Virus record (IMG/VR): IMGVR_UViG_3300031707_002920
Coordinates: 21,904-85,903 of that record
DNA length: 64,000 bases
Reading direction: 5' to 3' (one strand)
From: a virus
Positions 4,625 through 35,550 of the stretch are shown piece after piece; within the stretch, counting starts at the first letter, position 1; every line of letters starts with the position of its first letter. The translations under genes and the position numbers were made by a program. Under the pieces are notes generated by a model. It was not told where the DNA came from, did not search any database, and saw only the letters and a list, made by a program, of their open reading frames with translations.

Positions 4625-4631
4625 TTAACAT

Positions 4632-4705: not shown

Positions 4706-4720
4706 CTATTTCAATATGCT

Positions 4721-4782: not shown

Positions 4783-4809
4783 TGCTATTGCTATTTCTAG
4801 TAAAATGAT

Positions 4810-5191: not shown

Positions 5192-5327
5192 CTTTTTTCT
5201 TCATAGTTAATCTCACCTGATTGGTAAATTAAATTTAAAATTTATCATAAGATCAAATTTGAAGAACTGATTAGTTCGTGAAAAATGTATAGAAATTTAT
5301 AAATGTACTAAACTAAAAAGGATCTTT

Positions 5328-9304: not shown

Positions 9305-9321
9305 TTTTTTCTAAAAATCAA

Positions 9322-16890: not shown

Positions 16891-18502
16891 ATTTGACCAA
16901 AAAAATGTGTCTGATTTCTTTCCGTATCCGACATATAGACAGTATCAATTAGAGACCATTAATAAAATTCAACAACATTTTGTTGATGGTGTTAAAGACA
17001 TTATTATAGAGATGCCTACTGGTTCTGGAAAATCGCCTGTAGCAATTGCATGTGGATTATGGTCAGAGAATTCTTATTGTTTAACTTCACAAAAAATCTT
17101 GCAAGATCAATATATTAAAGATTTCACTGAAGATTACAGGATTTCTGTGTTGAAAGGTCGCAGCAATTATGAGTGCACATTTTTGGGTGATCCTGCAATG
17201 TGTAACGAGTGCTATGAACCTGCCAGAAAGCAATGTTATAAAAACGGAACGTGCCTTTATCAGATTGCTAAGAAAAGAACAATTAATTCTATTATAGCGT
17301 TGATGAATTATTCATACTTTCTGAATGTGACAGATTGTGATCCTAATAAATCGTTCGGTAAGAAGAAATTGTTGATTTGTGACGAGTGTCACTCGCTTGA
17401 GGGCGAGCTTATGGGGCAGGTCGAGTTCATTTTATCAGAATTTATGTTTAAGCGATCAGGGTATCCTGTTGCTATTCCCACATATGAATCATTAGATCAA
17501 TATGAAGCGTGGATAAAAGAAAATATAGAACAAGTGCAAGCGATTTTAAAGAAAAAAAATGATGAGTTAGATAGTTTGAATAGACAGCGAGTGAGTCTTA
17601 GTCGTGAATCTTTTAATTTTAAAAAAATGTCAGGAGAGACGGCTGAACTAGTGTCGCAAGTTGAAGAAATTGATCGTCTTTATCGACGAATGAATACGTT
17701 TTTGAATACTATAGGTTTAGTTGAATGGGTGTTTACGGTCGAAAGAACTGAAAAATTAAAGATGAAGAAAGTGATTTTTAAACCATTGACGATTAATTTA
17801 TTTGCACCCGATTGTTTATTAAATTACGGTGAACAACGACTTTACATGTCAGCTACTATTTTAGATAAAAAGAGTTTTTGTCATAGTCTTGGTATCAATT
17901 GTGATGAAGCTGCTTTTATAAGAGTGCCATCAACGTTTCCTGCTAAAAATCGGAAGATATTTTTTACAAATTCTGGTTTTATGAACTTAGCGAATATCGA
18001 CGATACGTTACCAAATATTGTCAGAGACTTGAAAAAAGCACTGGCATATCATAAGTCTGAAAAAGCACTAGTGCATTGTCATTCATATAAGATTGCAAAT
18101 TACATACAAGAAAATTGTCATGACCATCGGTTGATTTTTCATAATTCAGAGAATCGTGAAAAGATGCTTCAAAAGTTTATGCAATCGACAGATCCTATGG
18201 TTTTAGTTTCGCCGTCTATGACTGAGGGTCTTGATCTTAAAGATGACTTAGCACGTTGGGAAATTATAGTCAAAGTACCGTATTTATATTTGGGTGATAA
18301 ACAAGTATCTAGAAGAATGGCAATTGATCCTGATTGGTACAATTGGCAAACATGCCTGACACTGGTTCAGAGTTACGGTCGCATTTTTAGATCAGAGACT
18401 GATTGGGGAACAGTATATGTATTTGATAGTGGAGCAAGAGGATTTATACAACGTAATGTAAGTATTTTACCACAATGGTTTATCGACGCTTGTCAATTTT
18501 AA
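16883..18502 (+). CDS. DinG/XPD-family SF2 helicase
   Basis: Q motif, MPTGSGKS, KGRSNY.C Cys cluster, DECH, SAT, EGLD, QSYGRIFR. Confidence 0.9.
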   Translation: MHRFDQKNVSDFFPYPTYRQYQLETINKIQQHFVDGVKDIIIEMPTGSGKSPVAIACGLWSENSYCLTSQKILQDQYIKDFTEDYRISVLKGRSNYECTFLGDPAMCNECYEPARKQCYKNGTCLYQIAKKRTINSIIALMNYSYFLNVTDCDPNKSFGKKKLLICDECHSLEGELMGQVEFILSEFMFKRSGYPVAIPTYESLDQYEAWIKENIEQVQAILKKKNDELDSLNRQRVSLSRESFNFKKMSGETAELVSQVEEIDRLYRRMNTFLNTIGLVEWVFTVERTEKLKMKKVIFKPLTINLFAPDCLLNYGEQRLYMSATILDKKSFCHSLGINCDEAAFIRVPSTFPAKNRKIFFTNSGFMNLANIDDTLPNIVRDLKKALAYHKSEKALVHCHSYKIANYIQENCHDHRLIFHNSENREKMLQKFMQSTDPMVLVSPSMTEGLDLKDDLARWEIIVKVPYLYLGDKQVSRRMAIDPDWYNWQTCLTLVQSYGRIFRSETDWGTVYVFDSGARGFIQRNVSILPQWFIDACQF

Positions 18503-18550
18503 GTAGAGCAGCTATATCAATCTACGCAAAGCAGGTTGATTATAAAAGTT

Positions 18551-18766
18551 ATGAGAACTACAATTGAAGTAGCTCCTGATAAACGAAGAATTTGGCGACA
18601 ATGGTGTAAGAAATTTAAATTAAGTAGTGTAAAGTTATTTGATAAATTAATTGAGAAGATCGAGCAACGACAACAACAAGAGTTTTATAATTCATTGCCA
18701 AGACCTATAAAATATGTTAAGCCATTGGAAAATAAAAGAATTAGGAAATTTGTATACAAAAAATAG
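18551..18766 (+). CDS. small basic protein, possibly ribbon-helix-helix-like (copy 1)
   Basis: MRTTIEV strand then helices; immediately upstream of attI-like site. Confidence 0.6.
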   Translation: MRTTIEVAPDKRRIWRQWCKKFKLSSVKLFDKLIEKIEQRQQQEFYNSLPRPIKYVKPLENKRIRKFVYKK

Positions 18767-18777
18767 GTTCATATAAT
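18750..18777 (+). promoter_or_regulatory. sigma70-type promoter (Pc-like) overlapping attI-like site
   Basis: TTGTAT-16 bp-TATAAT; predicted +1 near the GTT at 18783; repeated at 19753-19780. Confidence 0.6.
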
Positions 18778-18789
18778 AACTAGTTGCAC
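18771..18789 (+). other. attI-like recombination site 1
   Basis: ATATAAT-AACTA-GTTGCAC; no hairpin precedes this GTT, and GTTGCACG is complementary to CGTGCAAC at 18961 closing cassette 1. Confidence 0.75.
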
Positions 18790-18822
18790 GCAATAGGCCG
18801 CGAACCATGTTGGAGGTGAATT

Positions 18823-19056
18823 TTGGAAACGAGAATTATTCGTAACGCCAGTTGTAAATGTAGCGATTGCATGGGACCGGAGCGGGGTATCTGCCCTCGT
18901 AAGGGTTTCCAAAATTCACGGAGCACTAAGGAGTCGCGGCCTACAGTCCGGCGAAACGCCCGTGCAACAGACAAAGTGCGCCATGTAGATGATGGCCGTG
19001 TCGTTCCAGTAGATGGGTATGGTCAGCACAGCCACCCCGATTTTTTTCACGATTGA
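18823..19056 (+). CDS. cassette ORF, hypothetical Cys-containing
   Basis: GGAGGTG RBS before TTG; ends inside attC loop. Confidence 0.55.
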   Translation: METRIIRNASCKCSDCMGPERGICPRKGFQNSRSTKESRPTVRRNARATDKVRHVDDGRVVPVDGYGQHSHPDFFHD

Positions 19057-19085
19057 TTACGGCGCACGTTTGTCAACCGTTGTTT
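18962..19085 (+). repeat. attC-like site
   Basis: AAC-A-GACAAA-GTGCGCC...GGCGCAC-G-TTTGTC-AACC-GTT. Confidence 0.85.
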
Positions 19086-19122
19086 GCAATTGTCAATTTC
19101 TCTTATATACTGAGGTGGCGCT

Positions 19123-19362
19123 ATGATGACAGAACGGTGCGGAAGGTGTGCGAATCTAAGTGGGTTATGTGCTATGGTCGGCTGTGGTGGCTTCGTCGAG
19201 AAAGCGCCACTGGAAGCTGTGGAAGAAATTGCCAACAGCACACAACAAACCAATGGCGCAGGGGCTGAAGCCACATTACCGCCCAGGTGCCTCATCACTG
19301 GTTGTTACGACGATGCAGAACCTACATCTGTGTTCTGTGCGTGGCATAATATAGGGCGGTAA
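19123..19362 (+). CDS. cassette ORF, Cys-rich hypothetical
   Basis: GAGG RBS; ORF track. Confidence 0.6.
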   Translation: MMTERCGRCANLSGLCAMVGCGGFVEKAPLEAVEEIANSTQQTNGAGAEATLPPRCLITGCYDDAEPTSVFCAWHNIGR

Positions 19363-19387
19363 CGTCGCCATTGGTCAAACGTTGTAA
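19240..19387 (+). repeat. attC-like site
   Basis: AAC-AA-ACCAATGGCG...CGCCATTGGT-CAAAC-GTT. Confidence 0.8.
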
Positions 19388-19477
19388 GAAATGCTGGCCG
19401 TTCTGAAATTATAGGGCGGCGGCAAAACCAAAACAAGGAGAAAACATGAAACGCATTATCGAGAAGTACGACCACCA
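19381..19477 (+). pseudogene. truncated copy of the cassette at 21274 (5' leader and first codons)
   Basis: Identical to 21274-21370, then fused to repeat copy 2. Confidence 0.9.
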
Positions 19478-19789
19478 ATGGTTTATCGACGCTTGTCAAT
19501 TTTAAGTAGAGCAGCTATATCAATCTACGCAAAGCAGGTTGATTATAAAAGTTATGAGAACTACAATTGAAGTAGCTCCTGATAAACGAAGAATTTGGCG
19601 ACAATGGTGTAAGAAATTTAAATTAAGTAGTGTAAAGTTATTTGATAAATTAATTGAGAAGATCGAGCAACGACAACAACAAGAGTTTTATAATTCATTG
19701 CCAAGACCTATAAAATATGTTAAGCCATTGGAAAATAAAAGAATTAGGAAATTTGTATACAAAAAATAGGTTCATATAATAACTAGTTG
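19476..19789 (+). repeat. 314-bp direct repeat copy 2 with attI-like site 2 (GTT at 19786)
   Basis: Identical to 18473-18786; followed by a different cassette (GTTGTCGG). Confidence 0.95.
19554..19769 (+). CDS. small basic protein (copy 2)
   Basis: Identical to 18551-18766. Confidence 0.6.
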   Translation: MRTTIEVAPDKRRIWRQWCKKFKLSSVKLFDKLIEKIEQRQQQEFYNSLPRPIKYVKPLENKRIRKFVYKK

Positions 19790-19828
19790 TCGGAAATTCC
19801 GCGCAGGTTTTATGATTGGAGGCGGCGC

Positions 19829-20059
19829 ATGAGAGATAGTGATTTCAAACGCAAATTGTTCTGGGAGTGCATCGACAATCTGGGATCGAAGGGGCGTAGC
19901 AGCGCCGCTAAACTGGCGGAACCTGCGCTCCACATCCCACAACAGGGCCAGCACAAAATTTGCCCTCAATGTGGTGGCAATCTTGTGGAGATGTATCAGG
20001 CTGATGTTTACATTTGCAATGATTGCGGTATCAAGGTTACGGGCAAACTTCGTGCGTAG
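19829..20059 (+). CDS. cassette ORF, Zn-ribbon hypothetical
   Basis: GGAGG RBS; CPQC..CNDC encoded in the attC loop. Confidence 0.65.
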   Translation: MRDSDFKRKLFWECIDNLGSKGRSSAAKLAEPALHIPQQGQHKICPQCGGNLVEMYQADVYICNDCGIKVTGKLRA

Positions 20060-20074
20060 CCCGAACCGTTGTAT
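19937..20074 (+). repeat. attC-like site
   Basis: AAC-A-GGGCCA-GCAC...GTGC-G-TAGCCC-GAACC-GTT. Confidence 0.8.
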
Positions 20075-20112
20075 GCAACCGGTCACGCGACCATATTGTA
20101 AAGGGGCGACAA

Positions 20113-20436
20113 ATGACAATCATCCAGGCGTTATCAAGCATTCGCGGTGAGTTGGAGGAAGCGGAGCGCAAGTTCCCCTCGTTTCCTACAGACCCGGTAC
20201 ACGCCGCCGCAATAGTGGTTGAGGAAGCTGGTGAGCTACAACAGGCAGCATTGCAGTTTACGTATGAAGGCGGCGGCTGGGCTGAGTTGCACAACGAGGC
20301 TGTGCAGGTTGGCGCGATGGCGCTCCGCTTTCTTTGTCACATAGATTCGATGAAGAGTCGTCCCTCCGAGCAGGTGGAGCGCGTGCCCGGCAGCATACAA
20401 CAGGGCCAGCACGAAACGGCGGCTGACAAGGGGTAG
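20113..20436 (+). CDS. cassette ORF, MazG-like nucleotide pyrophosphohydrolase
   Basis: HAAAIVVEEAGEL...EAVQVGAMALRFL. Confidence 0.7.
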   Translation: MTIIQALSSIRGELEEAERKFPSFPTDPVHAAAIVVEEAGELQQAALQFTYEGGGWAELHNEAVQVGAMALRFLCHIDSMKSRPSEQVERVPGSIQQGQHETAADKG

Positions 20437-20482
20437 GGGATTATAGGCCGCCGCATCGTGCGAGTGGCCCGGGACGTTGTAA
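20395..20482 (+). repeat. attC-like site
   Basis: AAC-A-GGGCCA-GCACGA...TCGTGC-GAG-TGGCCC-GGGAC-GTT. Confidence 0.85.
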
Positions 20483-20548
20483 GAAATTCGCCCCGCTTTG
20501 AGAATATTTAGGCGAGCGCGAAAACCAAAAACAAAAAAGGAGAAACAA

Positions 20549-20884
20549 ATGCAAGCAGGACCGGTATCGATATTTCAGTCCCCGAATATTGTAAGGGACC
20601 TTCGTGTCTTGCCCGAGTTTAAGACCGTTGCACAACAATTTCGAGATGATTTAGGGCACAAAATGGTGGAGCACAAAAAGAAAATCAAAACTGACGGTAA
20701 TAAACTGTGTGGATTTATTGTGTCTCCTGAGTACAAAGCTATGTTACTTACTTTTTGCCAGGACCTTGTTCAGCTACCTACTATTATGGGTGAGTTACCT
20801 ATGCTGTACGGGATGCCCATTGAAGATGGAGAGGTCTCAAATATCGCGTTCAAATTTGAAAAAGACGCGCTCGCAGGACACTAA
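20549..20884 (+). CDS. cassette ORF, hypothetical
   Basis: AAGGAG RBS. Confidence 0.7.
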   Translation: MQAGPVSIFQSPNIVRDLRVLPEFKTVAQQFRDDLGHKMVEHKKKIKTDGNKLCGFIVSPEYKAMLLTFCQDLVQLPTIMGELPMLYGMPIEDGEVSNIAFKFEKDALAGH

Positions 20885-20902
20885 GGAGGCGGGGCGAACA
20901 TC

Positions 20903-20995
20903 TTACAACACAGCAAGGGATGCCAGAAACGCAGGACATTAAGGATTGAATTTTATTATAGGCGTTTCCAGCACCCGTTGCTGAACGCGTTGGTT
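20903..20995 (+). repeat. attC-like site (86 bp identical to 21726-21811)
   Basis: AAC-A-CAGCAA-GGG...CCC-G-TTGCTG-AACGC-GTT. Confidence 0.85.
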
Positions 20996-21035
20996 GAAAT
21001 TCCAGTCGATTTATTTTATTGAAAGGTTGCGAATT

Positions 21036-21248
21036 ATGTTTGTTCCAATTTGGCTGCTTATCGTCTTATCGGGGTTTGGTTGCTGGGGCACACTTATATT
21101 CATCAATGCCATTCGCAACAGGAAATCTAAGGTGGTATCTCCTTCCGCATTCGCACAACAGGCAAAGTGTGCCATGCTTCCGTGTCTCGGCTATTTAGAA
21201 TCTGAGTGTGAAAATTGTAGCAACTACAATCTGTACCGTAAACCGTAG
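21036..21248 (+). CDS. cassette ORF, membrane-anchored Cys-rich hypothetical
   Basis: AAGG RBS; N-terminal TM helix. Confidence 0.6.
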   Translation: MFVPIWLLIVLSGFGCWGTLIFINAIRNRKSKVVSPSAFAQQAKCAMLPCLGYLESECENCSNYNLYRKP

Positions 21249-21280
21249 CGGCACGGCACACATTTGCCGAACCGTTGTAA
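21153..21280 (+). repeat. attC-like site
   Basis: AAC-A-GGCAAA-GTGTGCC...GGCACAC-A-TTTGCC-GAACC-GTT. Confidence 0.85.
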
Positions 21281-21338
21281 GAAATGCTGGCCGTTCTGAA
21301 ATTATAGGGCGGCGGCAAAACCAAAACAAGGAGAAAAC

Positions 21339-21689
21339 ATGAAACGCATTATCGAGAAGTACGACCACCAGTTTATCAAAGATGGTAAGCGCATTTTCTG
21401 TACCTATGTTACTGTGCCATTTTCAGAGTTGCCTGAAGACTGTGATTTTTCTGGATTGGATGTGTCTATTATCAACGTGCTGTATGATGACTGTCACATC
21501 GCTGTTACGGGGTTTGATAGCAATCAAAACGGTATCTCAGTAGAGATACCCCCTACGCTGAAATTTCTATTTTATAAGGCAAGGGAGCAAGGTCAAGCGG
21601 TGTGTGCTGAATTGCTGACGAAGCATAACTTTGAAACAAACTGCATCAAGTTCAAAAAGGATATAGGGTACAGTAACACGGTAGCATAA
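21339..21689 (+). CDS. cassette ORF, hypothetical
   Basis: AAGGAG RBS. Confidence 0.75.
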   Translation: MKRIIEKYDHQFIKDGKRIFCTYVTVPFSELPEDCDFSGLDVSIINVLYDDCHIAVTGFDSNQNGISVEIPPTLKFLFYKAREQGQAVCAELLTKHNFETNCIKFKKDIGYSNTVA

Positions 21690-21730
21690 GAGAGCCGCCG
21701 CCAAGACATTAGGGATACGGCCAGCACATC

Positions 21731-21821
21731 TTACAACACAGCAAGGGATGCCAGAAACGCAGGACATTAAGGATTGAATTTTATTATAGGCGTTTCCAGC
21801 ACCCGTTGCTGGGCGTTGGTG
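21731..21821 (+). repeat. attC-like site
   Basis: Same body as 20903-20995. Confidence 0.85.
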
Positions 21822-21847
21822 GAAATAAACTTTTCTTTGGAGGTTAT

Positions 21848-22114
21848 ATGTTTGCCGAATTTGACAAGGTGATTAGGTGCCTTGCGTTGGAGTTACCCGA
21901 GTCCGTACATGCCGATGTTGTGGCGAAGTACGGCAAACTGAAAGCTGAGGTGGAAAAGTTTACATCCACCAACAGCGCTATGGATGCAATAAACGCTTAC
22001 ATTAAGGAATATGATAGCAAGCTGATTACTACTCCCGATGAAAAATGTGCATTGGCGGTGTGTGAATTTACGGATAAGTATGCTAATATTTTTAGGCGTT
22101 TACTGCACCAGTAG
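21848..22114 (+). CDS. cassette ORF, hypothetical
   Basis: GGAGG RBS; C-terminal half encoded by attC. Confidence 0.7.
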   Translation: MFAEFDKVIRCLALELPESVHADVVAKYGKLKAEVEKFTSTNSAMDAINAYIKEYDSKLITTPDEKCALAVCEFTDKYANIFRRLLHQ

Positions 22115-22128
22115 CGCAGACGTTGGGT
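21967..22128 (+). repeat. attC-like site
   Basis: AAC-A-GCGCTA-TGG...CCA-G-TAGCGC-AGAC-GTT. Confidence 0.85.
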
Positions 22129-22165
22129 GCAATTCGCGCCCGACCATATGATAGGCGGTTTCGCT

Positions 22166-22453
22166 ATGAAGATATGTCGAAAGTGTAGTATCGTTTACGA
22201 GAATCGTACTTGCCCGCTGTGTAATCTGCGCAAGCACGATAATCTTGTCCACGACTTCATCGAGTCAAAGGGACGAAGTCTTGTTCGGGAGTTGGTAGCC
22301 TATTTGCAGCACCGCGAAACCGCAGCAGATAGCGGAGCGGGCGCGAACAGCACCCAACATTCGCAGCACAAAAGTTGCCCTACATTCAACCGAGATTGTC
22401 ATTTCTCTGTTGTCAAGATACAGTGTACGAATGCCGGAGATTGTCCATGTTAA
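22166..22453 (+). CDS. cassette ORF, Zn-ribbon hypothetical
   Basis: CRKC..CPLC. Confidence 0.65.
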   Translation: MKICRKCSIVYENRTCPLCNLRKHDNLVHDFIESKGRSLVRELVAYLQHRETAADSGAGANSTQHSQHKSCPTFNRDCHFSVVKIQCTNAGDCPC

Positions 22454-22489
22454 ACGGGCAACCTTCGTGCGGTGCGGTGAACGTTGGTG
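22352..22489 (+). repeat. attC-like site
   Basis: AAC...CGCA-GCAC..GTTGCCC / GGGCAAC..GTGC-G-GTGCG...GTT. Confidence 0.75.
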
Positions 22490-22533
22490 TAAATTTCGGT
22501 CGCTCTAAAACACGAATTATAGGAGGCGCAAAA

Positions 22534-22809
22534 ATGTCAGGAACGATTTATCATACGTGTTCGGTATGTGGAAGCGAAATGTATCCGAAGATTGGAGGGC
22601 GATCAAACGGCGACACCATAACAGAGTTTGTCATGGTGCCGTGTAAGATTTGCGCCTCTGAAAAAGAGGAATCCGCTCCCTCCGCATCCACCAACAGCGC
22701 TATGGTGTCATTGTGCTTAAAATGTAAATATACTTTTTCTTGTATAATGGCTGGTGAACACGTGCGAGAATCTTGTCCTACAAATGAGTTCGCACAACGG
22801 CACCAGTAG
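22534..22809 (+). CDS. cassette ORF, Zn-ribbon hypothetical
   Basis: AGGAGG RBS; CSVC..CKIC. Confidence 0.7.
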   Translation: MSGTIYHTCSVCGSEMYPKIGGRSNGDTITEFVMVPCKICASEKEESAPSASTNSAMVSLCLKCKYTFSCIMAGEHVRESCPTNEFAQRHQ

Positions 22810-22823
22810 CGCGGACGGTGGTG
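22689..22823 (+). repeat. attC-like site with mutated core (GGT)
   Basis: AAC-A-GCGCTA-TGG...CCA-G-TAGCGC-GGAC-GGT. Confidence 0.8.
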
Positions 22824-22850
22824 TAAATAAACCGCGCTTGGAGGTTATAG

Positions 22851-23087
22851 GTGGCCGCCGATGAAGTGCTTCGATTTATGATCCGATGGTTTGCGCGACA
22901 CGATACGCCGCCGACGGTTCGCCAGGTATGGAAAGCGGCCACGAAAGCAGCGGAGGCGCGGTTTACATCCACCAACAAAGCAAGTGCGCCATGCCCACAG
23001 TGTGTAGATTTTGGCGCTATTCCGCCGCTTGTCAACTATTGTAAAACCTGTGGCCGTAAGCTACATGAGCACGGCGCACGTTGCTGA
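22851..23087 (+). CDS. cassette ORF, hypothetical
   Basis: GGAGG RBS before GTG. Confidence 0.6.
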   Translation: MAADEVLRFMIRWFARHDTPPTVRQVWKAATKAAEARFTSTNKASAPCPQCVDFGAIPPLVNYCKTCGRKLHEHGARC

Positions 23088-23097
23088 ACCGTTGTAA
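22970..23097 (+). repeat. attC-like site
   Basis: AAC-A-AAGCAA-GTGCGCC...GGCGCAC-G-TTGCTG-AACC-GTT. Confidence 0.85.
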
Positions 23098-23147
23098 GAA
23101 ATGCTCACCATTTTTGAATTTATGGGTGGGCGCAAAAAGGAGACCTA

Positions 23148-23468
23148 ATGCAGAACGTTTACGATGTTTTAAAATACAGGTTGTCTTTTATCTATGTTGT
23201 GTTAGCCTACACCTATTTGGTGTTAGCCTACATTTTTTGTATCATCATTAGTCCTTTGGGATTATTTTTAATGCTTTTTGAAAAACCTAAAATATGTTGT
23301 GTATGTAATAAGCGTATTGGTAAAAAAGAAGCTTGGACAAGTTATATTCATAGACCTGCTCATTATTCGTGTGTAGAAAACAAATGGTCATACTGGTATC
23401 AATTTGGCCCTATGGATAATCCTGATTATTGGCGTTATTTAGGTAGGAGTGCGCCCACAGAACAATAA
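23148..23468 (+). CDS. cassette ORF, membrane protein with CxxC/HxxC
   Basis: AAGGAG RBS; long hydrophobic N-terminus. Confidence 0.7.
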   Translation: MQNVYDVLKYRLSFIYVVLAYTYLVLAYIFCIIISPLGLFLMLFEKPKICCVCNKRIGKKEAWTSYIHRPAHYSCVENKWSYWYQFGPMDNPDYWRYLGRSAPTEQ

Positions 23469-23486
23469 GGAAATGGTGAGCACATC

Positions 23487-23556
23487 TTACAACAAACAAA
23501 TGGTGCCGAAGACTAAATCGTGAGTACACGACTTCACCATTTGTTGGACGTTGTAC
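23487..23556 (+). repeat. attC-like site (short, 70 bp)
   Basis: AAC-A-AACAAATGGTG...CACCATTTGTT-GGAC-GTT. Confidence 0.85.
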
Positions 23557-23600
23557 GCAAGTTTGGCGGTTCTGAATTTGATAGGCCGCCGAGGAGAAAT

Positions 23601-23974
23601 ATGGCATACCTTCATTGTCACAAGTGCGGCTGGTCACAGGATGATTTTTGGTATTGGCGGTGGTCTGGCCTCAAACAGTTTTGGAGGTGGCGGCATATGC
23701 CATTTGGCTATAATCCCGTTTCTCTTATTCTCGAAGATTTTGCCGAATACTGGAAGCCGCGCATGATAGGAATGGACTGTGTTTGGGCGCGTGAAAATGG
23801 TTTTAAAAGTAGTAATATTTTTCTTGGCATATTATGCTTTGGTCAATGGGTCGTCATGCGCGGCGTGTATTTAGTCAACGGTGGTGGTTTGACGATCAGT
23901 TTAAACGGGATTATAAAAACAATAAGGCCAAATGTCCTTCGTGCAAGTCACCAGATGATTTTGATATAGACTAA
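23601..23974 (+). pseudogene. cassette ORF, Zn-ribbon protein with probable 1-nt frameshift near 23820
   Basis: MAYLHCHKCGWSQDDFW... continues in the shifted frame as FSWHIML...KCPSCKSPDDFDID*. Confidence 0.6.
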
Positions 23975-24011
23975 TCGGCGGCAGAAGAATATTGAAACCG
24001 CCAAACCAGAC

Positions 24012-24094
24012 GTACAACAGCCGCAGCTTGAAACGGCTTTACACTAATGATTATGTTTTTGTAGGCCGCATCAAGCGTGCGGCAAACGTTGTAG
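24012..24094 (+). repeat. attC-like site
   Basis: AAC-A-GCCGCA-GCTTGA...TCAAGC-G-TGCGGC-AAAC-GTT. Confidence 0.88.
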
Positions 24095-24143
24095 TCAATG
24101 CCGTGCCGAGTCTTTATTGTAGGTGCGGCCATAAGGAGCAAGT

Positions 24144-24371
24144 ATGTTTTCATGGATGCATCGTGGTAAAGTTGAACGACCTATGTCCGAATTTCATGCC
24201 GAGTATATGGCCACACAGAGAGCAAAAGAGGAGTCGGCACGTCACAGCCTACAACAGCTAAAGGCTGAAATTGCCGCTACTATGCTTCCAGCTATTGTGG
24301 CATTAAGTAAAGGTGATATGATTACAGTCGCTAAATGTATTGACGAACTGCGGCAACTATCAGCCGTTTAG
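24144..24371 (+). CDS. cassette ORF ending QQLKAEIA...LRQLSAV
   Basis: AAGGAG RBS; stop TAG within attC right arm. Confidence 0.65.
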   Translation: MFSWMHRGKVERPMSEFHAEYMATQRAKEESARHSLQQLKAEIAATMLPAIVALSKGDMITVAKCIDELRQLSAV

Positions 24372-24383
24372 CGAACGTTGGTT
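24249..24383 (+). repeat. attC-like site
   Basis: AAC-A-GCTAAA-GGCTGA...TCAGCC-G-TTTAGC-GAAC-GTT. Confidence 0.88.
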
Positions 24384-24420
24384 GAAATTCCAGTCATGCT
24401 TTTTATGTTTGGAGGCGAAC

Positions 24421-24639
24421 ATGCTGTACTTTATCATAGGATGTCTAATAATCGGGTTGTTTATCTCGTTTTCAATAGGTTGGTGGTGTGGCGAACGGCA
24501 TGTTCGCAGAAACACTATGGTAGGCATTCCTTCCACATCAACCAACAGCAAAAGTACGCCATGTAAATGCACCTCAGTGCCGTTGGTAATATCTGAGAAG
24601 TGTAGATGTCGTATCTGTGGTCGAGTGTGGGTTCAGTAA
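24421..24639 (+). CDS. cassette ORF, membrane-anchored Cys-rich hypothetical
   Basis: GGAGG RBS; TM helix. Confidence 0.65.
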   Translation: MLYFIIGCLIIGLFISFSIGWWCGERHVRRNTMVGIPSTSTNSKSTPCKCTSVPLVISEKCRCRICGRVWVQ

Positions 24640-24667
24640 CACGGCGTACATTTTGCGGACGTTGTAA
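24540..24667 (+). repeat. attC-like site
   Basis: AAC-A-GCAAAA-GTACGCC...GGCGTAC-A-TTTTGC-GGAC-GTT. Confidence 0.85.
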
Positions 24668-24725
24668 GAAATGCGGTTGGCTCTGAAAATTATAAGCCGC
24701 CGCTAAAATCAAAACAAGGTATCAC

Positions 24726-25121
24726 ATGAAATTATCATCCTGCTCTCAAAAATTATATGGTAAACCTTTTTCAGATCTCACAGACTCTGAAAAAATAACA
24801 GTTAGAAAAGAAACTGCAAAATTAACTGTAGAAGAAGAACTCGAAAAACAAACCAAACGCGAACAAGAGTGGCATGACAGAATCGAGGATCCTGGACAAT
24901 GGTTCTGCCCCCGATGCGGTCATAAACTAGAACCGGTAAGCAAGGACAATGAAGACTGGGGAGATTTTTGTAGCGGATACCATGAGGAGCACGGCACTTT
25001 CTGGTTTCTATGCTCTAACAAAGACTGCACTTACAGTGAGGCTCCTCTTGTCGTCCATCATCCTGTTTATGGATGGCAATGCAGATCAGGAGATAGTTGG
25101 GCTATTGGTTACGTCAAATAA
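24726..25121 (+). CDS. cassette ORF, Zn-ribbon hypothetical
   Basis: CPRC..CSNKDC. Confidence 0.75.
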   Translation: MKLSSCSQKLYGKPFSDLTDSEKITVRKETAKLTVEEELEKQTKREQEWHDRIEDPGQWFCPRCGHKLEPVSKDNEDWGDFCSGYHEEHGTFWFLCSNKDCTYSEAPLVVHHPVYGWQCRSGDSWAIGYVK

Positions 25122-25162
25122 AGGCAGCGGCGGCGGGAAAGTAAGGAAGCCAACCGCACATC

Positions 25163-25235
25163 TTACAACAAATGCATGGCGGGGAGTACCCGCAAATTTG
25201 GAGTACCAAACTTCGCCATGCATCGGACGTTGTAG
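25163..25235 (+). repeat. attC-like site (near-identical to 26485-26557)
   Basis: AAC-AA-ATGCATGGCG...CGCCATGCAT-CGGAC-GTT. Confidence 0.85.
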
Positions 25236-25266
25236 TCAATTGTCGAGCGCAAAGAAAGGAAATTAT

Positions 25267-25497
25267 ATGCCCGCCGAAGAATTGCTTCCGTGTCGTAAAT
25301 GTGGGGCTCCTGCTGCGCCGATAGCTCCACCGAAAGATGGCTGGTCGTGTTTAATACACTGTTCAAAGTTTTGCGGTTATCATGAGCATGAAGGAACGGT
25401 AGAGAAAACGGTTCTTGCGTGGAATCGGCGGGCGGACACTAAGGAGTGCGCTCGCCAACAGCCTACAACAACCGTATGCCAAAATGTCGACGAGTAA
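25267..25497 (+). CDS. cassette ORF, Lar-like (restriction alleviation) Zn-ribbon protein
   Basis: ELLPCRKCG..A...IHC..C....A WNRR pattern. Confidence 0.65.
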   Translation: MPAEELLPCRKCGAPAAPIAPPKDGWSCLIHCSKFCGYHEHEGTVEKTVLAWNRRADTKECARQQPTTTVCQNVDE

Positions 25498-25739
25498 CCG
25501 ACGTGACTATGAACGCTCAGATTTTCAGTTCCCTGAGAAAACACGGAAAAGATATGTTGGATGTCTCCTGCTTAGCTAAAGAATTAAAAAAGGGTCTTAT
25601 GGGGACGATGTGGGGTGCTCGCGTGTGGGTTCATAGAGATGCTACAGAAATTAGGTGTTACGGAGAAAATAGTGTTGAGTTTGAAAAGCAATTCCCTTTT
25701 CTCAAGGAGTCTAAAAGAGTTCTCAAAATTAAAGACTAA
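25476..25739 (+). CDS. hypothetical protein (possible capsid-protein-like fragment)
   Basis: ORF track; MNAQ..SLRK.G.D.LD...ELKKGLMGTMWGA. Confidence 0.5.
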   Translation: MPKCRRVTDVTMNAQIFSSLRKHGKDMLDVSCLAKELKKGLMGTMWGARVWVHRDATEIRCYGENSVEFEKQFPFLKESKRVLKIKD

Positions 25740-25770
25740 AAGCCACAAACGAAGAGAGAGGAGGGATGTG

Positions 25771-26160
25771 ATGAGCCGGTCGTACTTTACAACACAGAAA
25801 ATTTCACGTAAGATATTTCCTAATAAAGTGGGAGATAGCATCCTACTTAAAAATGGAGAAAAACTAACTATTGGATCAGATAGAAAGGATATATCTGGAT
25901 CATTCTATCTGACGGATGGGATAGCAAGTGTGTGGTTGTATTTCGATAAGGGCCTTCTCTCTATGTACGATATAAACAATACATTTGCATGGAATGGTAC
26001 TGGAGAGCCATTGCTGAAAAAAATCCGATCATACGTGCGCAAACCAAAAGCAAAAGAGGCACGTCCTGTGCCTAAGAGCCGCCACAAGGACACTATGGTA
26101 GCGCGAAAAATAGCAGCCAACAGCCACAGCCCAAAACAGTGGAAGTTGACTAAGGACTAA
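25771..26160 (+). CDS. cassette ORF, hypothetical
   Basis: GGAGG RBS. Confidence 0.65.
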   Translation: MSRSYFTTQKISRKIFPNKVGDSILLKNGEKLTIGSDRKDISGSFYLTDGIASVWLYFDKGLLSMYDINNTFAWNGTGEPLLKKIRSYVRKPKAKEARPVPKSRHKDTMVARKIAANSHSPKQWKLTKD

Positions 26161-26204
26161 TTTTATTATAGTCCGCTGCATCGGGCGTGCGGCGGACGTT
26201 GTAC
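26115..26204 (+). repeat. attC-like site
   Basis: AAC-A-GCCACA-GCCC...GGGC-G-TGCGGC-GGAC-GTT. Confidence 0.8.
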
Positions 26205-26257
26205 AAAATTTAACCGCGTCTTGGATTTATAGCCGGGGCGCAAAACAGGAGAAAAAC

Positions 26258-26479
26258 ATGAAAGACACAGAGTTGAGAATTATCAGCGACGGTACTGTTG
26301 CTGGCACACAGGTGGTGGATTCTAAAGGTAACAGGGTCAAATTAGTACAGAAAATAAAATGGGAGTTATCCCTATCGTCTGGTATATCTAAAGTTACATT
26401 GGAAATTGCCAAAACACCTATTGATGTCATCGCCAAAAAAGCAAGAGCGCCCCGGAGGAACATTAAGGAACGCGGTTAA
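26258..26479 (+). CDS. cassette ORF, hypothetical
   Basis: AGGAG RBS. Confidence 0.75.
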   Translation: MKDTELRIISDGTVAGTQVVDSKGNRVKLVQKIKWELSLSSGISKVTLEIAKTPIDVIAKKARAPRRNIKERG

Positions 26480-26484
26480 ACTTC

Positions 26485-26557
26485 GTACAACAAATGCATG
26501 GCGGGGAGTACCCCCAAATTTGGAGTACCAAACTTCGCCATGCATCAAACGTTGTGC
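26485..26557 (+). repeat. attC-like site
   Basis: Same body as 25163-25235 with one internal difference. Confidence 0.85.
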
Positions 26558-26589
26558 GAAATAACCGGCGAACCATATTGGAGGCGCGA

Positions 26590-26919
26590 ATGATTCACAA
26601 ACACGATCTGCGTACCGCTATCAGCGATCTCGGGCAGGCTCTGGAGCATGTCGAGCACTATAGTGGTAGGCCGGAAGTTTTTTGCCTTAAGCAGCTTTTG
26701 GTCAATCCACTTTCGTACGCGCAGAACAATGGGAGTCGCCGGTTACATCGCACAACAGCGAAAGTGCGCAATGTCAACACAATTTTCAAGAGTCTATTTG
26801 TATTCGCTGTGGTAAAAAATTGTGATGCCACAGCGCACGTTTCGCGAGACGTTGGTTGCAATGGTCTTCTTAAATTTATTATAGGCGGCGCAAATGGCAA
26901 TTCCATTTTTCAAATGTAG
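26590..26919 (+). CDS. cassette ORF, hypothetical (3' end uncertain, reads across attC)
   Basis: GGAGG RBS before ATG 26590. Confidence 0.45.
   Translation: MIHKHDLRTAISDLGQALEHVEHYSGRPEVFCLKQLLVNPLSYAQNNGSRRLHRTTAKVRNVNTIFKSLFVFAVVKNCDATAHVSRDVGCNGLLKFIIGGANGNSIFQM
26750..26857 (+). repeat. attC-like site
   Basis: AAC-A-GCGAAA-GTGCGC...GCGCAC-G-TTTCGC-GAGAC-GTT. Confidence 0.85.
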
Positions 26920-27130
26920 TAAACATGGTGTTGTGAAGTTCAGGGTTATTCACGAGTGCGAGGTATGCGCCGCTGAAAACCGCTGTACTCAGCCCACAGA
27001 CAACCAACATACGCAGCTTGCAATTGCAGCTCTTCGCGGCGCGTTGTCTCGGTTGCCCGTCAATCTTGGCATGGTAGATCAGATATTGGTTGCCTTCGAG
27101 GAAGAGCTGCAACAGCAAGCGAGTGCGTAA
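26894..27130 (+). CDS. cassette ORF; C-terminus shared with 63336-63701
   Basis: QHTQLAIAALRGALSRLP...EELQQQASA. Confidence 0.65.
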   Translation: MAIPFFKCSKHGVVKFRVIHECEVCAAENRCTQPTDNQHTQLAIAALRGALSRLPVNLGMVDQILVAFEEELQQQASA

Positions 27131-27140
27131 AACGTTGGCC
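27002..27140 (+). repeat. attC-like site
   Basis: AAC-A-TACGCA-GCTTGC...GCAAGC-GAG-TGCGTA-AAAC-GTT. Confidence 0.85.
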
Positions 27141-27260
27141 GAAACTCCACGGCCAAAACGAATATAGATAGGCGGCATTATGCGGCCAAAGCGCCGCACT
27201 GCGCATAATCGCGGGCGTTGTACGCAATGGGCTTCTTAAATTTATTGGAGGTGGTTGCTT

Positions 27261-27497
27261 ATGTCAAAATGCAATAGTTGCGGTCGTGAGCCTCTTGAAT
27301 ATGTAACAAGGTGTGTGCGTTGCGGAGCGGCGCAACCACTGGAAAGCAGCGGTACTCAGCCCACAGACGTACAACAGCTAAAGGCCGAAATCGCCATGTG
27401 TGCGGCGTTGCTTGAGCCTTTATTCGGGGCGACTGAGGAACAAAGTAAGGTCATTACCGATGTCACGCAAAGACTGTGGCGACTATCAGCCGTTTAG
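27261..27497 (+). CDS. cassette ORF, Zn-ribbon, ends QQLKAEIA...LWRLSAV
   Basis: GGAGG RBS. Confidence 0.65.
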   Translation: MSKCNSCGREPLEYVTRCVRCGAAQPLESSGTQPTDVQQLKAEIAMCAALLEPLFGATEEQSKVITDVTQRLWRLSAV

Positions 27498-27509
27498 CAA
27501 ACGTTGTAT
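27369..27509 (+). repeat. attC-like site
   Basis: AAC-A-GCTAAA-GGCCGA...TCAGCC-G-TTTAGC-AAAC-GTT. Confidence 0.85.
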
Positions 27510-27541
27510 GCCATTTACATTTTCTCGGAGGTTATAGGCAC

Positions 27542-27763
27542 ATGGCTATATGCGGTACGAATCAATGCGTAGAGTGCGAGCTGTATATACACTGCATACG
27601 ACATGTGCGCGACGTAGTTCCGCCATGTGCAAAAAATGTAAACCAGCTAAAAGCCGAAATTCGCGCATTGCTAAACGACAATTGTGAGTTTTACGAAAGT
27701 AACGCTTCGTTAAGTAACATTAGCGCGTTTTTGTTCAAATTGCGCGAACTATCGGCTGTTTAG
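27542..27763 (+). CDS. cassette ORF, Cys-rich, ends QLKAEI...LRELSAV
   Basis: GGAGG RBS. Confidence 0.65.
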   Translation: MAICGTNQCVECELYIHCIRHVRDVVPPCAKNVNQLKAEIRALLNDNCEFYESNASLSNISAFLFKLRELSAV

Positions 27764-27776
27764 CAAATCGTTGTGC
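27637..27776 (+). repeat. attC-like site with eroded inverse core
   Basis: GCTAAA-AGCCGA...TCGGCT-G-TTTAGC-AAATC-GTT. Confidence 0.75.
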
Positions 27777-27812
27777 GCCATTAGAACCAGTCTTTATATC
27801 GAGAGGTAAAAC

Positions 27813-28046
27813 ATGTTTGCTTTGCAGTTAGTAGCACTCGTGCTGATTCTGTCTGCCGCTGCCCTCATAGTTACGATGCTTTTATTGGGTGTCGTAAGTT
27901 CGTTTTCGTCAAGTAAATGGTTCTGTACATCAATGGGTTGGCATCGTCAGCCAGACTCCATAGGCTTTGATGGCTGCTCGATGCTTGGTTGCTGTCCTCG
28001 GTGCGGCAAACATGTTTTACTGGATAGTCAAGGTAACTGGTTCTAA
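27813..28046 (+). CDS. cassette ORF, membrane-anchored Zn-ribbon
   Basis: GAGG RBS; WFC..MGWH...FDGCS...CPRCGK..L.DSQGNWF. Confidence 0.75.
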   Translation: MFALQLVALVLILSAAALIVTMLLLGVVSSFSSSKWFCTSMGWHRQPDSIGFDGCSMLGCCPRCGKHVLLDSQGNWF

Positions 28047-28077
28047 CAGCGCACAACAAATAGACAAGGAGATTTAT

Positions 28078-28386
28078 ATGGCGCGCAAGATTGTAAAGTT
28101 CGATGTTCAGCAGGTGCCGAATGATTATTGGAGTCAGTGTCACTACATATCGTGGTGTCTGTGCGACGACGGTACTATGTGGGAATTGCAAGATAATGAA
28201 AGCGCGTGGCGTCAGTTGCCTGTACCGGGGTGCGCGCCGGACACTGTGGAAGGCGCAAATTTACATCCACCAAGTGTGCCAGTTTGCCCTTCATGGTGTA
28301 AGGATACGTCAAGTGGTACGTGGGGGTGTTTGAAGGGCAAACCAGCACACATTTTGAAAGGTGGCGATCATGTCAACAGACATTAA
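28078..28386 (+). CDS. cassette-derived ORF, hypothetical
   Basis: AAGGAG RBS; degenerate inverse core TTACATCCACCAAG at 28261. Confidence 0.6.
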   Translation: MARKIVKFDVQQVPNDYWSQCHYISWCLCDDGTMWELQDNESAWRQLPVPGCAPDTVEGANLHPPSVPVCPSWCKDTSSGTWGCLKGKPAHILKGGDHVNRH

Positions 28387-28723
28387 CGTAGGTTTGGGAG
28401 AGTTTAAACTATTAGAGAGATTTGTGGTAGCTATGGAGCGAATCGCCACCAAACTGGAGGAAATCGCTCCTTCCACACCAACTAACAAAAGTGTGCCATT
28501 ATCTAAAACTAGTTATAAATTTCCAGAAACTGGAGTCTTTTTGGATATCCCTGTCAAAGCTCATTGGGTTCATAAAAATGTTAGTGAGATGAAAGAGGTC
28601 CGTATTTTTGGTAACATTTTAAAACTGGCTGAAACTTATGACATAATGATAACGCGGTCAGATTCTGAAAAATTGGTAATTTATATCGATGAGCCAGGAA
28701 AAAAATTCCGAATAAGAGGTTAA
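28370..28723 (+). CDS. cassette-derived ORF, hypothetical
   Basis: Contains attC-type peptide APSTPTNK. Confidence 0.55.
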   Translation: MSTDINVGLGEFKLLERFVVAMERIATKLEEIAPSTPTNKSVPLSKTSYKFPETGVFLDIPVKAHWVHKNVSEMKEVRIFGNILKLAETYDIMITRSDSEKLVIYIDEPGKKFRIRG

Positions 28724-28813
28724 AAGGATATTTTATGATCTGGATAGAGGTAAACAATTTGGAATTATTGTCAATGTGGAAACAATGTGTACTTTTTAGA
28801 ATTGGAGGGTGCA

Positions 28814-29089
28814 ATGAAAGTTTTGCCGTTGTGTGATACGTCTGGACACGATATGGAGATTGTTGCTGAAACAGACTTTGAGGCGGAGTGGCTTAAATGT
28901 CATTTCAAGGTTTGGCGCGGTGTAGATGGATTTGTTGATGATACAACAGTAGGTGGTGTTCGCCTCAAAGTCAAGAGCGCATGGTGGGATTGCACTAGAG
29001 CACTGGCGGAAGCGCACACACAGCCTACAACAGCGCCATGCGGTACGGGGCAGAAGCCCCAAATTGCCGAAGCGTCAACTTCCGCATAG
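28814..29089 (+). CDS. last cassette ORF, hypothetical
   Basis: GGAGG RBS; GCCTACAAC inverse core at 29023, right core degenerate (AAACTTGG). Confidence 0.65.
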   Translation: MKVLPLCDTSGHDMEIVAETDFEAEWLKCHFKVWRGVDGFVDDTTVGGVRLKVKSAWWDCTRALAEAHTQPTTAPCGTGQKPQIAEASTSA

Positions 29090-29372
29090 CGCAAACTTGG
29101 AAGAAAAATGAAACTTACATCGTTTGCGTAACTCAGGCCGGTTCGTGATGCAGCGATGCGTGTCGTTGAGGCTCAAACAGCGCCTCAATGCCGCTATTGT
29201 TTAAGCTTCATTGATGATTCTCATAAATTTATAGTTTTAAACTGTATATAGTAGCTAAAAATGTGTACAATATAAACTAATATCCCACTCAGGTATGTCG
29301 TATTTAAATACTCTGTTTGTGGTAGTTTTTAATGTAATCACATGAATATGAAAAACAAAACAGAAGAAGAAA

Positions 29373-33754: not shown

Positions 33755-33948
33755 TTCATTTTTAACAGCACTTACAGCACTTTTTAAAAAATATTCAAAA
33801 AAACAATTAGCGACAATGTCATTTGTAGAATTTACGATCTTGCGAGCGGGAAAGCCCACGACTTCAGTCGTGGGATGAAAGCGAGCAATAGATAAGTCGA
33901 ACTCTTCTATGAAAATATAGTATATTAGATAAACGGGAGGTATCTAAT

Positions 33949-34344
33949 ATGCCAAGATGGGACAAGTCAAACAAGGCGACCTATAATTTGGGATACCACT
34001 TAATCTGGTGCCCCAAGTACCGACGCAAAGTCTTGGTTGGAGATGTAGAGAAAAGACTCAAAGAGCTGTTCCATGAAAAGGCAAAGGAGCTTTCTATTTC
34101 TATTGAGAAAATGGAAGTCATGCCCGATCATGTTCATCTTTTCGTTAAATGCTCTCCAGTCAATTCTCCTCATCTGATCGTAAAGCACCTCAAGGGATAC
34201 AGTTCGAGAGTGATGAGGATAGAGTTCCCAAAATTGAAATCAAGACTCCCGTCACTGTGGACCCGATCCTACTACTGTGAATCGATAGGTCACATTTCAG
34301 AAGAGACAATCAAAAAGTACATCGACGACCAAAAGAACAAATGA
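33949..34344 (+). CDS. tnpA: Y1 HUH transposase
   Basis: YHLIWCPKYRR, PDHVH, LWTRSYY, YIDDQ. Confidence 0.95.
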   Translation: MPRWDKSNKATYNLGYHLIWCPKYRRKVLVGDVEKRLKELFHEKAKELSISIEKMEVMPDHVHLFVKCSPVNSPHLIVKHLKGYSSRVMRIEFPKLKSRLPSLWTRSYYCESIGHISEETIKKYIDDQKNK

Positions 34345-35366: not shown

Positions 35367-35550
35367 TGAGCGCAATGGACACAAGAACCCCACGACTTTA
35401 GTCGTGGGAGTACGTCAGATAAAATAACTAAGCGTATTCTTTTATTTAAGCAATATTTAAAAAATTATAGTAGATAAAAACGTATACTATATAAATTATT
35501 ATCATACTCAAGCGCATTACGTTCAGCATTCTGTTTGCGAAAAGGATAAC

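Follow-up and report, generated by a model that had tools for sequence, protein, structure and literature searches.

Complementary ends of gene cassettes in a phage array are probable halves of an enlarged, cassette-private attC-type recombination site

Why should the two ends of single gene cassettes in a phage be complementary to each other well beyond the core sequence at which they recombine? The question is raised by a stretch of 64,000 nucleotides (nt), here called the window, which is part of the 85.9-kb viral contig IMGVR_UViG_3300031707_002920 (IMG/VR; positions 21,904 to 85,903; estimated completeness 43%). It contains an integron-like array of short units, all on the plus strand (Table 1; units are named below by their first position). 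A first-pass annotation, made from the sequence alone, had described the units as clamped by nested terminal inverted repeats whose complementarity continues past the core across an AA/CA bubble. Every example that it listed was correct (20476/20889, 21274, 21815, 22122, 23091, 24661, 26198, 26551 and 27770), and the same R'-AA-X / X'-CA-R'' design was also found at 19079, 20068, 22817, 24088 and 25229. The label of terminal inverted repeats, on the other hand, set these ends in the wrong frame. They are probably the two halves of each cassette's own enlarged, private attC-type site, split when the site is opened at G↓TTG (the arrow marks the crossover), in an integron-like system run by an Xer-type recombinase.

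Analysis of the units showed that the first 9 nt of nearly every one (GTTGnnnnn) were complementary, at 8-9 of 9 positions, to a sequence nnnnnCAAC further inside the same unit. This was followed by a hairpin of 56-148 nt, bounded by CAAC and GTTG with a core that departs from RYYYAAC/GTTRRRY, and then by the GTTG of the next unit. The cassette at 21274-21815 was present at 15 metagenome loci with 88-100% identity. There it followed 11 or more different upstream sequences and preceded 7 or more different downstream ones, and homology stopped at GTTG on both sides (resolution ±1 nt, the G being invariant). Because this cassette changes contexts with homology breaks exactly at GTTG, the array units are mobile cassettes with an integron-type crossover at G↓TTG. 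The pairing was specific to the cassette. Own R' matched R'' at 4.35 of the 5 variable core positions, whereas the R' of the next cassette matched at 2.25, against 2.29 for random sequence. With about 25 attC-type sites and no PF00589 protein in the 85.9 kb, the array corresponds to a cluster of attC sites lacking an integrase (CALIN; at least two attC-type sites, no integrase near), albeit with non-canonical sites and in a record that is 43% complete.

The same cassette architecture was found in two further viral contigs, L013 and L059 (L numbers label contigs other than that of the window). A 14-mer scan of viral contigs had yielded mainly single hits of the kind expected by chance, these two among them, but both were later found to hold real arrays. 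Arrays of the same design, with some cassettes in common, occurred in L013 (a 164-kb viral contig, backbone 22-24% GC), L059, L126 (52% GC) and L189. Because phage-like contigs of such different base composition carry these arrays, the comparison implies a common cassette pool in sediment communities, in which large phages with backbones of 23-52% GC share highly mobile small-gene cassettes.

Short cassettes had the additional property that their open reading frame (ORF) ran on through R'' and the hairpin. Between the window and an L013 homologue this ORF showed 10 synonymous and 2 non-synonymous codon changes, which marks it as truly coding; the cassette-protein homologues P0003-P0007 were more diverged, at 52-77% identity. 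Elsewhere in the array, three hairpin modules (24250-24377, 27370-27503 and 27639-27770) encode a homologous C-terminal peptide, QLKAEI...LSAV and a stop codon, behind different N-terminal modules. Since the differences among these three are synonymous and also compensatory in the stem (GGCTGA/TCAGCC vs AGCCGA/TCGGCT), the hairpins are under both coding and pairing constraint.

To define the ends, 31 distinct cassettes from the window and from metagenome copies were compared. The 5' end consisted of R' (9 nt, GTTGnnnnn), AA, X (10 nt), a loop of 11-14 nt ending in TTATA·GG or TTGGA·GG (loop5), and Y. The 3' end consisted of Y', a loop of 12-14 nt with a TAAGGAG- or GCGGAG-like end (loop3), X' (10 nt), CA, and R'' (9 nt, nnnnnCAAC). 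The two ends of one cassette pair with each other, R' with R'', X with X' and Y with Y', and R and X together make a 21-bp helix. Positions 1-4 of the stem were invariant, while positions 5-9 and 13-21 covaried. Position 10 was A.A in 27 of the 31 cassettes, position 11 was A.C in all of them, and position 12 was T-A in 27. The five inner stems named in the first-pass annotation were all recovered as the best duplex of the remaining flanks. The unpaired motifs that it had noticed between the stems proved to be enriched and strand-specific, TTATAGG occurring 9 times on the plus strand and once on the minus strand (0.9 expected) and TAAGGA 12 times and never, respectively (4.1 expected). Joined copies of the two motifs were present inside hairpin loops at about 20933, 21761 and 26148, as had been described.

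The pairing was far above chance expectation. Binding partners in X were Watson-Crick in 297 of 310 cells, and every X column showed all four Watson-Crick pair types. For the variable stem cells as a whole, 436 of 465 were Watson-Crick, compared with a mean of 181 for permuted partners (standard deviation 13, maximum 232, 2000 permutations) and with 105-165 when the arms were shifted in register. With the 9-nt core excluded, 17 of the 21 window cassettes had an own-end duplex that outscored each of the 40 non-own pairings. A pattern scan identified 45 cis pairs with X paired at 8 or more of 10 positions, and 0.0 in shuffled sequence. The Y stem was less cassette-specific than X, the own pair ranking in the top 3 of 60 for 19 of 31 cassettes, because many Y stems have GGCGGC-type sequence in common. 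The first-pass annotation had proposed covariation as a check, a lack of compensatory changes among homologues being evidence against end-to-end folding. Among related frames, 76 of 96 differing columns were compensated and 20 were not; L121:71 and L121:1168, for example, differed by 2/2 compensated changes, and window frames 21274 and 23091 by 3/3. The pattern named as counting against the folding was thus not seen.

These features are best explained, we think with fair probability, by a recombination site that is whole in a circle and divided in the array. An excised circle would bring the ends together as a contiguous Y'-loop3-X'-CA-R''-[attC-like hairpin]-R'-AA-X-loop5-Y. This junction may fold, best on the minus (bottom) strand, as a single interrupted hairpin of about 200 nt with the cleavage site in its middle and the cargo gene as its far loop. 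Integration would then open the circle at G↓TTG, leaving R'-AA-X-loop5-Y at the 5' end of the cassette and Y'-loop3-X'-CA-R'' just upstream of its hairpin; since everything after TTG would belong to the cassette, the split halves take on the look of terminal repeats. Selection on the folded DNA site would maintain the complementarity between the halves, including cases in which the 3' half is part of a coding sequence. In single-stranded DNA (ssDNA) of the array, each R' would likewise pair with its own R'', because R'' matches the R' of the next cassette only at chance level, and a perfect R box would form at every junction whatever the neighbour. The likely gain would be a stable, duplex-like R arm for an Xer-type recombinase that has no IntI domain to read extrahelical bases. 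We infer the circular intermediate, the reactive strand and the part that outer stems and conserved loops play for the enzyme.

Predicted folding was consistent with such a site. The circular-form junction had mean energies of -44.3 (plus) and -47.5 (minus) kcal/mol, compared with -33.1 and -33.3 for the array form, and was the more stable of the two in 19/19 cassettes. For 1.4 kb of array ssDNA, the minimum-energy fold of either strand formed the own-end stems completely, and array-form R boxes were absent from it. Together with the massive covariation, this bears out the earlier proposal that a single cassette folds end to end.

That proposal had named ssDNA or RNA as the folded molecule, and here the two parts fared differently. 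Non-Watson-Crick stem cells were nearly all A.C or T.C on the plus strand, which corresponds to G.T or G.A on the minus strand, and the sense strand showed a single G.T(U) among about 590 stem cells. As a selected sense-RNA helix should be rich in G.U, selection on sense RNA is disfavoured, and the mismatch types favour minus-strand ssDNA. The minus strand was also predicted to be the more stable in 17/19 cassettes. For attC sites, greater stability and a G:T bias of the bottom strand have been reported (PMC5027507). The minus strand is thus likely to be the reactive one. The choice is not settled, however, because a single bulged G in the hairpin, read by eye (CCC-G-TTGCTG, CCA-G-TAGCGC, TCAGCC-G-TTTAGC), sits on the plus-strand 3' arm, opposite to the arm that carries the classical bottom-strand extrahelical bases.

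Stems in the transcript could in principle bracket the ORFs and serve RNase III-type processing, mRNA stabilisation or translational control. All ORFs lie on the plus strand, the 21-bp helix of R and X would be a suitable structure, and the Shine-Dalgarno-like GGAGG of short cassettes falls in loop5. Against these points stand the mismatch types, with one G.U-type pair in the sense strand and the deviations being A.C and U.C, and the position of the 3' arm in short cassettes, in the middle of a coding ORF. With X', Y' and R'' inside that ORF, RNase cleavage there would sever the message. No Rfam family was found in the array at gathering thresholds, where tRNAs and transfer-messenger RNA (tmRNA) were the only matches in the DNA, and a promoter and terminator scan gave no consistent signal at cassette ends. 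Among public runs no RNA data set was listed as carrying the sequence, a result that does not bear on expression. The RNase-processing units suggested by the first-pass annotation were therefore rejected, and an RNA-level role of any kind seems very improbable.

An enzyme that could act on such sites was found beside arrays on other contigs. In L123, a tyrosine recombinase gene (4998-5933; 293-312 amino acids) ends 2 nt before the first GTTG and is co-oriented with its array. In L189, a 42-kb viral contig, three cassettes of this design begin about 60 nt after a recombinase that is 42% identical to that of L123. Both enzymes are Xer-sized, at about 280-293 amino acids, and the close relatives of the L123 protein all measure 274-296. 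The L123 protein scored below the cut-offs for XerA, XerC/D and integron integrase (TIGR02249, 171 bits in two stretches; cut-off 265). When it was aligned with VchIntIA (2a3v), residues 37-187 and 219-294 matched 17-170 and 244-319, so that about 40 IntI residues were unmatched where the IntI-specific domain lies. Foldseek matched its predicted model (predicted local distance difference test score, pLDDT, 75) about equally to IntI and archaeal XerA. By alignment and model, the array-adjacent enzyme is an Xer-like tyrosine recombinase without the IntI-specific insertion (I2). I2 reads extrahelical bases and blocks second-strand cleavage (PMC4792948). An enzyme that lacks it may need a more duplex-like, self-stabilised site, and hence outer stems. 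A single-protein search for the recombinase in genomes and viral contigs found none, and a profile search gave relatives at no more than 42% identity, among which only L189 has an array.

At the start of the L123 array the stop codon of the recombinase overlaps the first crossover core (5920-5940; ...GGG TAG TTG TAA G...), and the attI-like site for this reason lies within the 3' end of the recombinase gene. The sequence (T/G)A·GTTG likewise marks the junction with the first cassette in the window, L059, L126/L129 and L189.

Several observations weigh against a split recombination site. No circular junction was observed; two contig joints do "go back", but their arms are short, near-identical inverted repeats, which makes these joints ambiguous. 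The 85.9-kb phage record, at 43% completeness, holds no tyrosine or serine recombinase, and the array may be inert here. Outer pairing is weak or shifted in the short cassettes 20989, 22483, 26851 and 27217. In an L013 homologue of cassette 21815, the pairing is disrupted by a hybrid 5' end, with no compensating change. Nor does a split site account for the conserved internal loops, and the bulged G described above lies on the unexpected arm.

The same complementarity could instead be under selection in the array. Pairing of a cassette's own ends in ssDNA would there give a three-way junction, formed by the R-X-Y stem and two flanking hairpins, that provides a perfect R box in cis, juxtaposes the two crossovers and promotes precise excision of a single cassette. 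This overlaps with the split-site reading and differs solely in the state under selection, circle or array, and both may hold; as the explanation of the ends we consider it unlikely. In its favour, array-form R boxes are complementary at chance level, the predicted array fold uses own-end stems and forms none of those boxes, and any of the four bases can occur at the variable core positions, in departure from the purine/pyrimidine rule of GTTRRRY, so that hybrid R boxes would be poor. Against it, local hairpins may be the first structures to form as the DNA is replicated, and a stable clamp might just as well lock R' and R'' away and block recombination. GC skew also suggests that the minus strand is the leading-strand template and hence would rarely be single-stranded. 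A different possibility is that the pairing is historical and without function, the frame being an ancestral ORF-less palindrome into whose apex genes were inserted. Identical frames around unrelated cargo, where homology breaks at the inner edges of Y and Y', fit this possibility. Joined loop3 and loop5 motifs in some hairpin loops, the 83-nt unit without an ORF (Table 1) and contigs from four sediment runs that jump from about Y to about Y' in four cassettes fit as well. A neutral relic would decay, yet Watson-Crick pairs fill 94% of the variable cells in frames that differ greatly, most changes between related frames are compensated (76 vs 20), and pairing is kept inside coding sequence. 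Frame reuse could equally be the "same attC, different gene" of any integron, and a mere relic is quite improbable.

Transposon-type ends, that is, terminal inverted repeats (TIRs) of a DDE element or ends of the IS200/IS605 type (TnpA/TnpB), would place the array in another class of mobile DNA. The phage does carry a complete TnpA and TnpB element (about 33.85-35.41 kb), one TnpB gene adjoins the array (29373-30632), and TnpB is found near the arrays in L120, L121 and L123. The hairpins of that insertion sequence are nevertheless local, with the sequence CCCACGACTT(C/T)AGTCGTGGG, and occur at 3531, 33855, 35389 and 46425, never in the array. X and Y are private to each cassette and covary (about 30 different X, each with its own complement), whereas TIRs are conserved in sequence. 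Boundaries fall at GTTG cores, with the own-core complementarity typical of site-specific recombination via a circle, and no target-site duplications were seen at cassette junctions. The conserved hairpin at four sites outside the array, the private X stems and the lack of duplications exclude an IS200/IS605 or DDE-TIR identity, and the probability left to ends of this type is negligible.

Comparison of cassettes further showed that their parts assort separately, which goes beyond the first-pass annotation. The frame of window cassette 20476 recurs at L124:122-781 with 2-3 substitutions over 60 nt (5') and 130 nt (3'), around a cargo of about 600 nt that is unrelated; homology ends at Y+AA and resumes at GA+Y'. 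At L122:1297 the frame of window cassette 23091 encloses unrelated cargo and is followed by a different hairpin after R''. Homology in such reused frames thus breaks at defined points, Y+AA(AAA) in the 5' part and GA(G)+Y' in the 3' part, and the reuse lends support to the suggestion in the first-pass annotation that the structure may record how cassettes are created. Identical hairpins, conversely, follow cassettes 20476 and 21274, whose frames and cargo differ, and in the L116 copy of cassette 21274 homology is lost just before R''. Frame, cargo and hairpin are thus, from these alignments, separate modules, and their assortment implies exchange at R'' as well as at R', plus a process that places genes between Y and Y'. 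The jumps from about Y to about Y' are consistent with further cargo variants or empty frames; they are a hint only and were not counted as evidence for circles. L129:3804 was rejected as a case of frame reuse, as only AA+X is common to it and window cassette 22817.

Taken together, three exchangeable modules (a private frame, an apex cargo and an attC-like hairpin) can be tentatively read as a system in which the frame is a reusable docking scaffold that captures genes. The own-end clamp would give a duplex arm in cis, in place of I2 and extrahelical bases, as a candidate pre-IntI or parallel solution to ssDNA recombination. We regard this broader reading as possible but on balance doubtful; if true, it would offer a concrete, testable route for cassette genesis. 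The co-evolution of attC sites and the IntI-specific domain has been termed a "chicken-egg paradox", and there has been no dependable model of cassette creation so far (PMC4792948). An Xer-like enzyme without the IntI domain, sites with private covarying stems, and one frame around unrelated genes with defined breakpoints make both questions approachable by simple assays.

The system has clear likenesses to classical integrons, in which the site R''-L''...L'-R' folds as a bottom-strand hairpin with the crossover at G↓TT (PMC5027507, PMC5371416). Both have an imperfect palindrome with conserved AAC/GTT, a GTT-core crossover, cassettes that move as units, a more stable minus or bottom strand, and same-strand arrays of short ORFs. 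In both, the first bases of a cassette complement its own inverse core and not that of the neighbour; in arrays, as described by Loot et al., R'' and the variable part of R' can differ (PMC5371416). Split-site logic is standard for the 7-bp core of classical cassettes. In the integron literature searched, no description was found of pairing that extends about 45 nt further in both directions, in the form of two private stems and conserved loops. Unlike classical sites, those of the phage array add this pairing beyond the R box, with two private covarying stems, conserved loops of 11-14 nt and a fixed A.A/A.C bubble. Their 9-nt core leaves five positions free for any base, and RRRY/RYYY is not followed. 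The central spacer is very asymmetric, with 0-1 nt following R'' and 4-5 nt preceding R', compared with 5-6 nt in both classical arms, and the bulged G is on the other arm (plus-strand 3' arm; the classical extrahelical bases lie on the bottom-strand L'' arm). Many ORFs read through the site, and the array-associated recombinase (L123, L189) is co-oriented and lacks the IntI-specific insertion.

Other known systems share single traits. The CALINs and integron parts described in phages consist of a few classical attC sites each, which IntI1 recognises (Qi et al. 2023, PMC9892861). Like them, the present array is an attC-type cluster without an integrase in a virulent-type phage genome; unlike them, it has about 25 cassettes, an enlarged site design and a different enzyme family. 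IS200/IS605 elements (TnpA, Y1 HUH) resemble it in their ssDNA circles and hairpin-dependent ends, and adjoin these arrays; their ends, however, are local subterminal hairpins of conserved sequence, none of which is in the array. Phages of the CTX type use host XerCD/dif to integrate the whole phage genome, through a duplex-like site formed from folded ssDNA and one strand exchange that is completed by replication. By analogy, an Xer-family enzyme would act on a duplex-like site of folded ssDNA in both cases, with the difference that here a dedicated recombinase would shuffle many small cassettes.

Table 1. Positions of the array and of cassette frames and hairpins in the window.
Feature	Position	Strand	Details
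Integron-like cassette array	18783-29090	+	about 25 units, 45-47% GC, in 33% GC phage backbone
Array, left edge			first unit begins after ...ATAATAACTA·GTTG
Array, right edge			last hairpin ends ...GCGCAAAC·TTGGAAG
Cassette frame	19079-19246	+	R'-AA-X 19079-19099; X'-CA-R'' 19226-19246; X 9/10
Cassette frame	20068-20401	+	R'-AA-X 20068-20088; X'-CA-R'' 20381-20401; core 9/9, X 9/10
Cassette frame	20476-20909	+	GTTGTAAGA-AA-TTCGCCCCGC (20476-20496) complementary to GCGGGGCGAA-CA-TCTTACAAC (20889-20909)
Frame 20476, 5' parts			R' 20476-20484; AA 20485-20486; X 20487-20496; loop5 20497-20511; Y 20512-20520
Frame 20476, 3' parts			Y' 20866-20874; loop3 20875-20888; X' 20889-20898; CA 20899-20900; R'' 20901-20909
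attC-like hairpin (B module) of cassette 20476	20910-20988	+	loop with joined motifs ACATTAAGGA and TTGAATTTTATTATAGG, about 20933-20960
Hairpin identical to 20910-20988	21738-21814		follows cassette 21274
Cassette frame	21274-21737	+	R'-AA-X 21274-21294; X'-CA-R'' 21717-21737; X 10/10
Frame 21274, inner stem			Y about 21309-21316; Y' about 21695-21702
Short cassette frame	21815-21973	+	R'-AA-X 21815-21835; X'-CA-R'' 21953-21973; 3' arm within coding ORF 21848-22114
Cassette frame	22122-22358	+	R'-AA-X 22122-22142; X'-CA-R'' 22338-22358; 10/10; Y CGGTTTCGC, Y' GCGAAACCG
Cassette frame, GGTG core variant	22817-22976	+	22817-22837; 22956-22976; X 10/10
Cassette frame	23091-23493	+	23091-23111; 23473-23493; X 10/10; Y GTGGGCGC(A), Y' TGCGCCCAC
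Cassette frame	24088-24255	+	24088-24108; 24235-24255; X 9/10
Cassette frame	24661-25169	+	24661-24681; 25149-25169; X 10/10; Y CCGCCGCT, Y' AGCGGCGG
Cassette frame	25229-25469	+	25229-25249; 25449-25469; X 9/10
Cassette frame	26198-26491	+	26198-26218; 26471-26491; X 10/10; bubble AA/CT; Y CCGGGGCGC, Y' GCGCCCCGG
Cassette frame	26551-26756	+	26551-26571; 26736-26756; core 9/9, X 10/10
83-nt unit without ORF	27134-27216	+	R' closed on nearby R''-like sequence, then hairpin with TATAGATAGG motif
Cassette frame	27770-28057	+	27770-27790; 28037-28057; core 9/9, X 10/10; bubble CA/CA

Irregular structures were seen at several points of the array. The oversized cassette at 25229-26197 arose by fusion to the 3' part of another cassette. 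Its own frame, with R'' at 25461, is followed by an AT-rich stretch of about 550 nt that contains two ORFs, by a second X'-R'' (GCGCGAAAAA-TA-GCAGCCAAC, about 26098-26116) and by a hairpin homologous to the end of L121:1168. The right boundary of the array is atypical (29080-29095), with C·TTGGAAG after the last hairpin and without the usual core G. On the left, an exact 300-nt duplication of the backbone (18473-18772 = 19476-19775; the helicase 3' end and a 76-amino-acid ORF) brackets the first two cassettes, and at about 19470 a truncated copy of cassette 21274 is fused to the helicase end at a short microhomology.

The IS200/IS605-type element of the backbone (33855-35408) comprises TnpA (Y1 HUH, PF01797, E 6.6e-42; about 33979-34332) and a TnpB-like ORF (34341-35366). 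Near-identical subterminal hairpins, with the sequence given above, flank it, and the hairpin also stands alone at 3531 and 46425. TnpB (OrfB_IS605 / Cas12f-like TNB) is encoded beside arrays on four independent contigs (window 29373-30632, L120:1943-3184, L121:6134-7345 and L123:2437-3522), either because the two are recurrently associated or because both favour hairpin-rich DNA.

The array as a whole had no blastn match in deposited phages. The surrounding phage backbone, at about 33% GC, has nearly all of its genes on the plus strand, including those for a DnaG-type primase, a sigma-like factor, a helicase, a Pol III alpha with an intein, and TnpB. Because relatives of the helicase sit on viral contigs of 63 kb and 416 kb, with no array at the corresponding position of either, the phage belongs to a large-phage lineage. 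The Pol III alpha-type polymerase (35551-37824) has PHP and NTPase domains and a weak intein-splicing match (PF14890, 25 bits; cut-off 35.8). Eleven tRNA genes and a full-length tmRNA (125 bits) are located at 1-5191 and 8893-9307.

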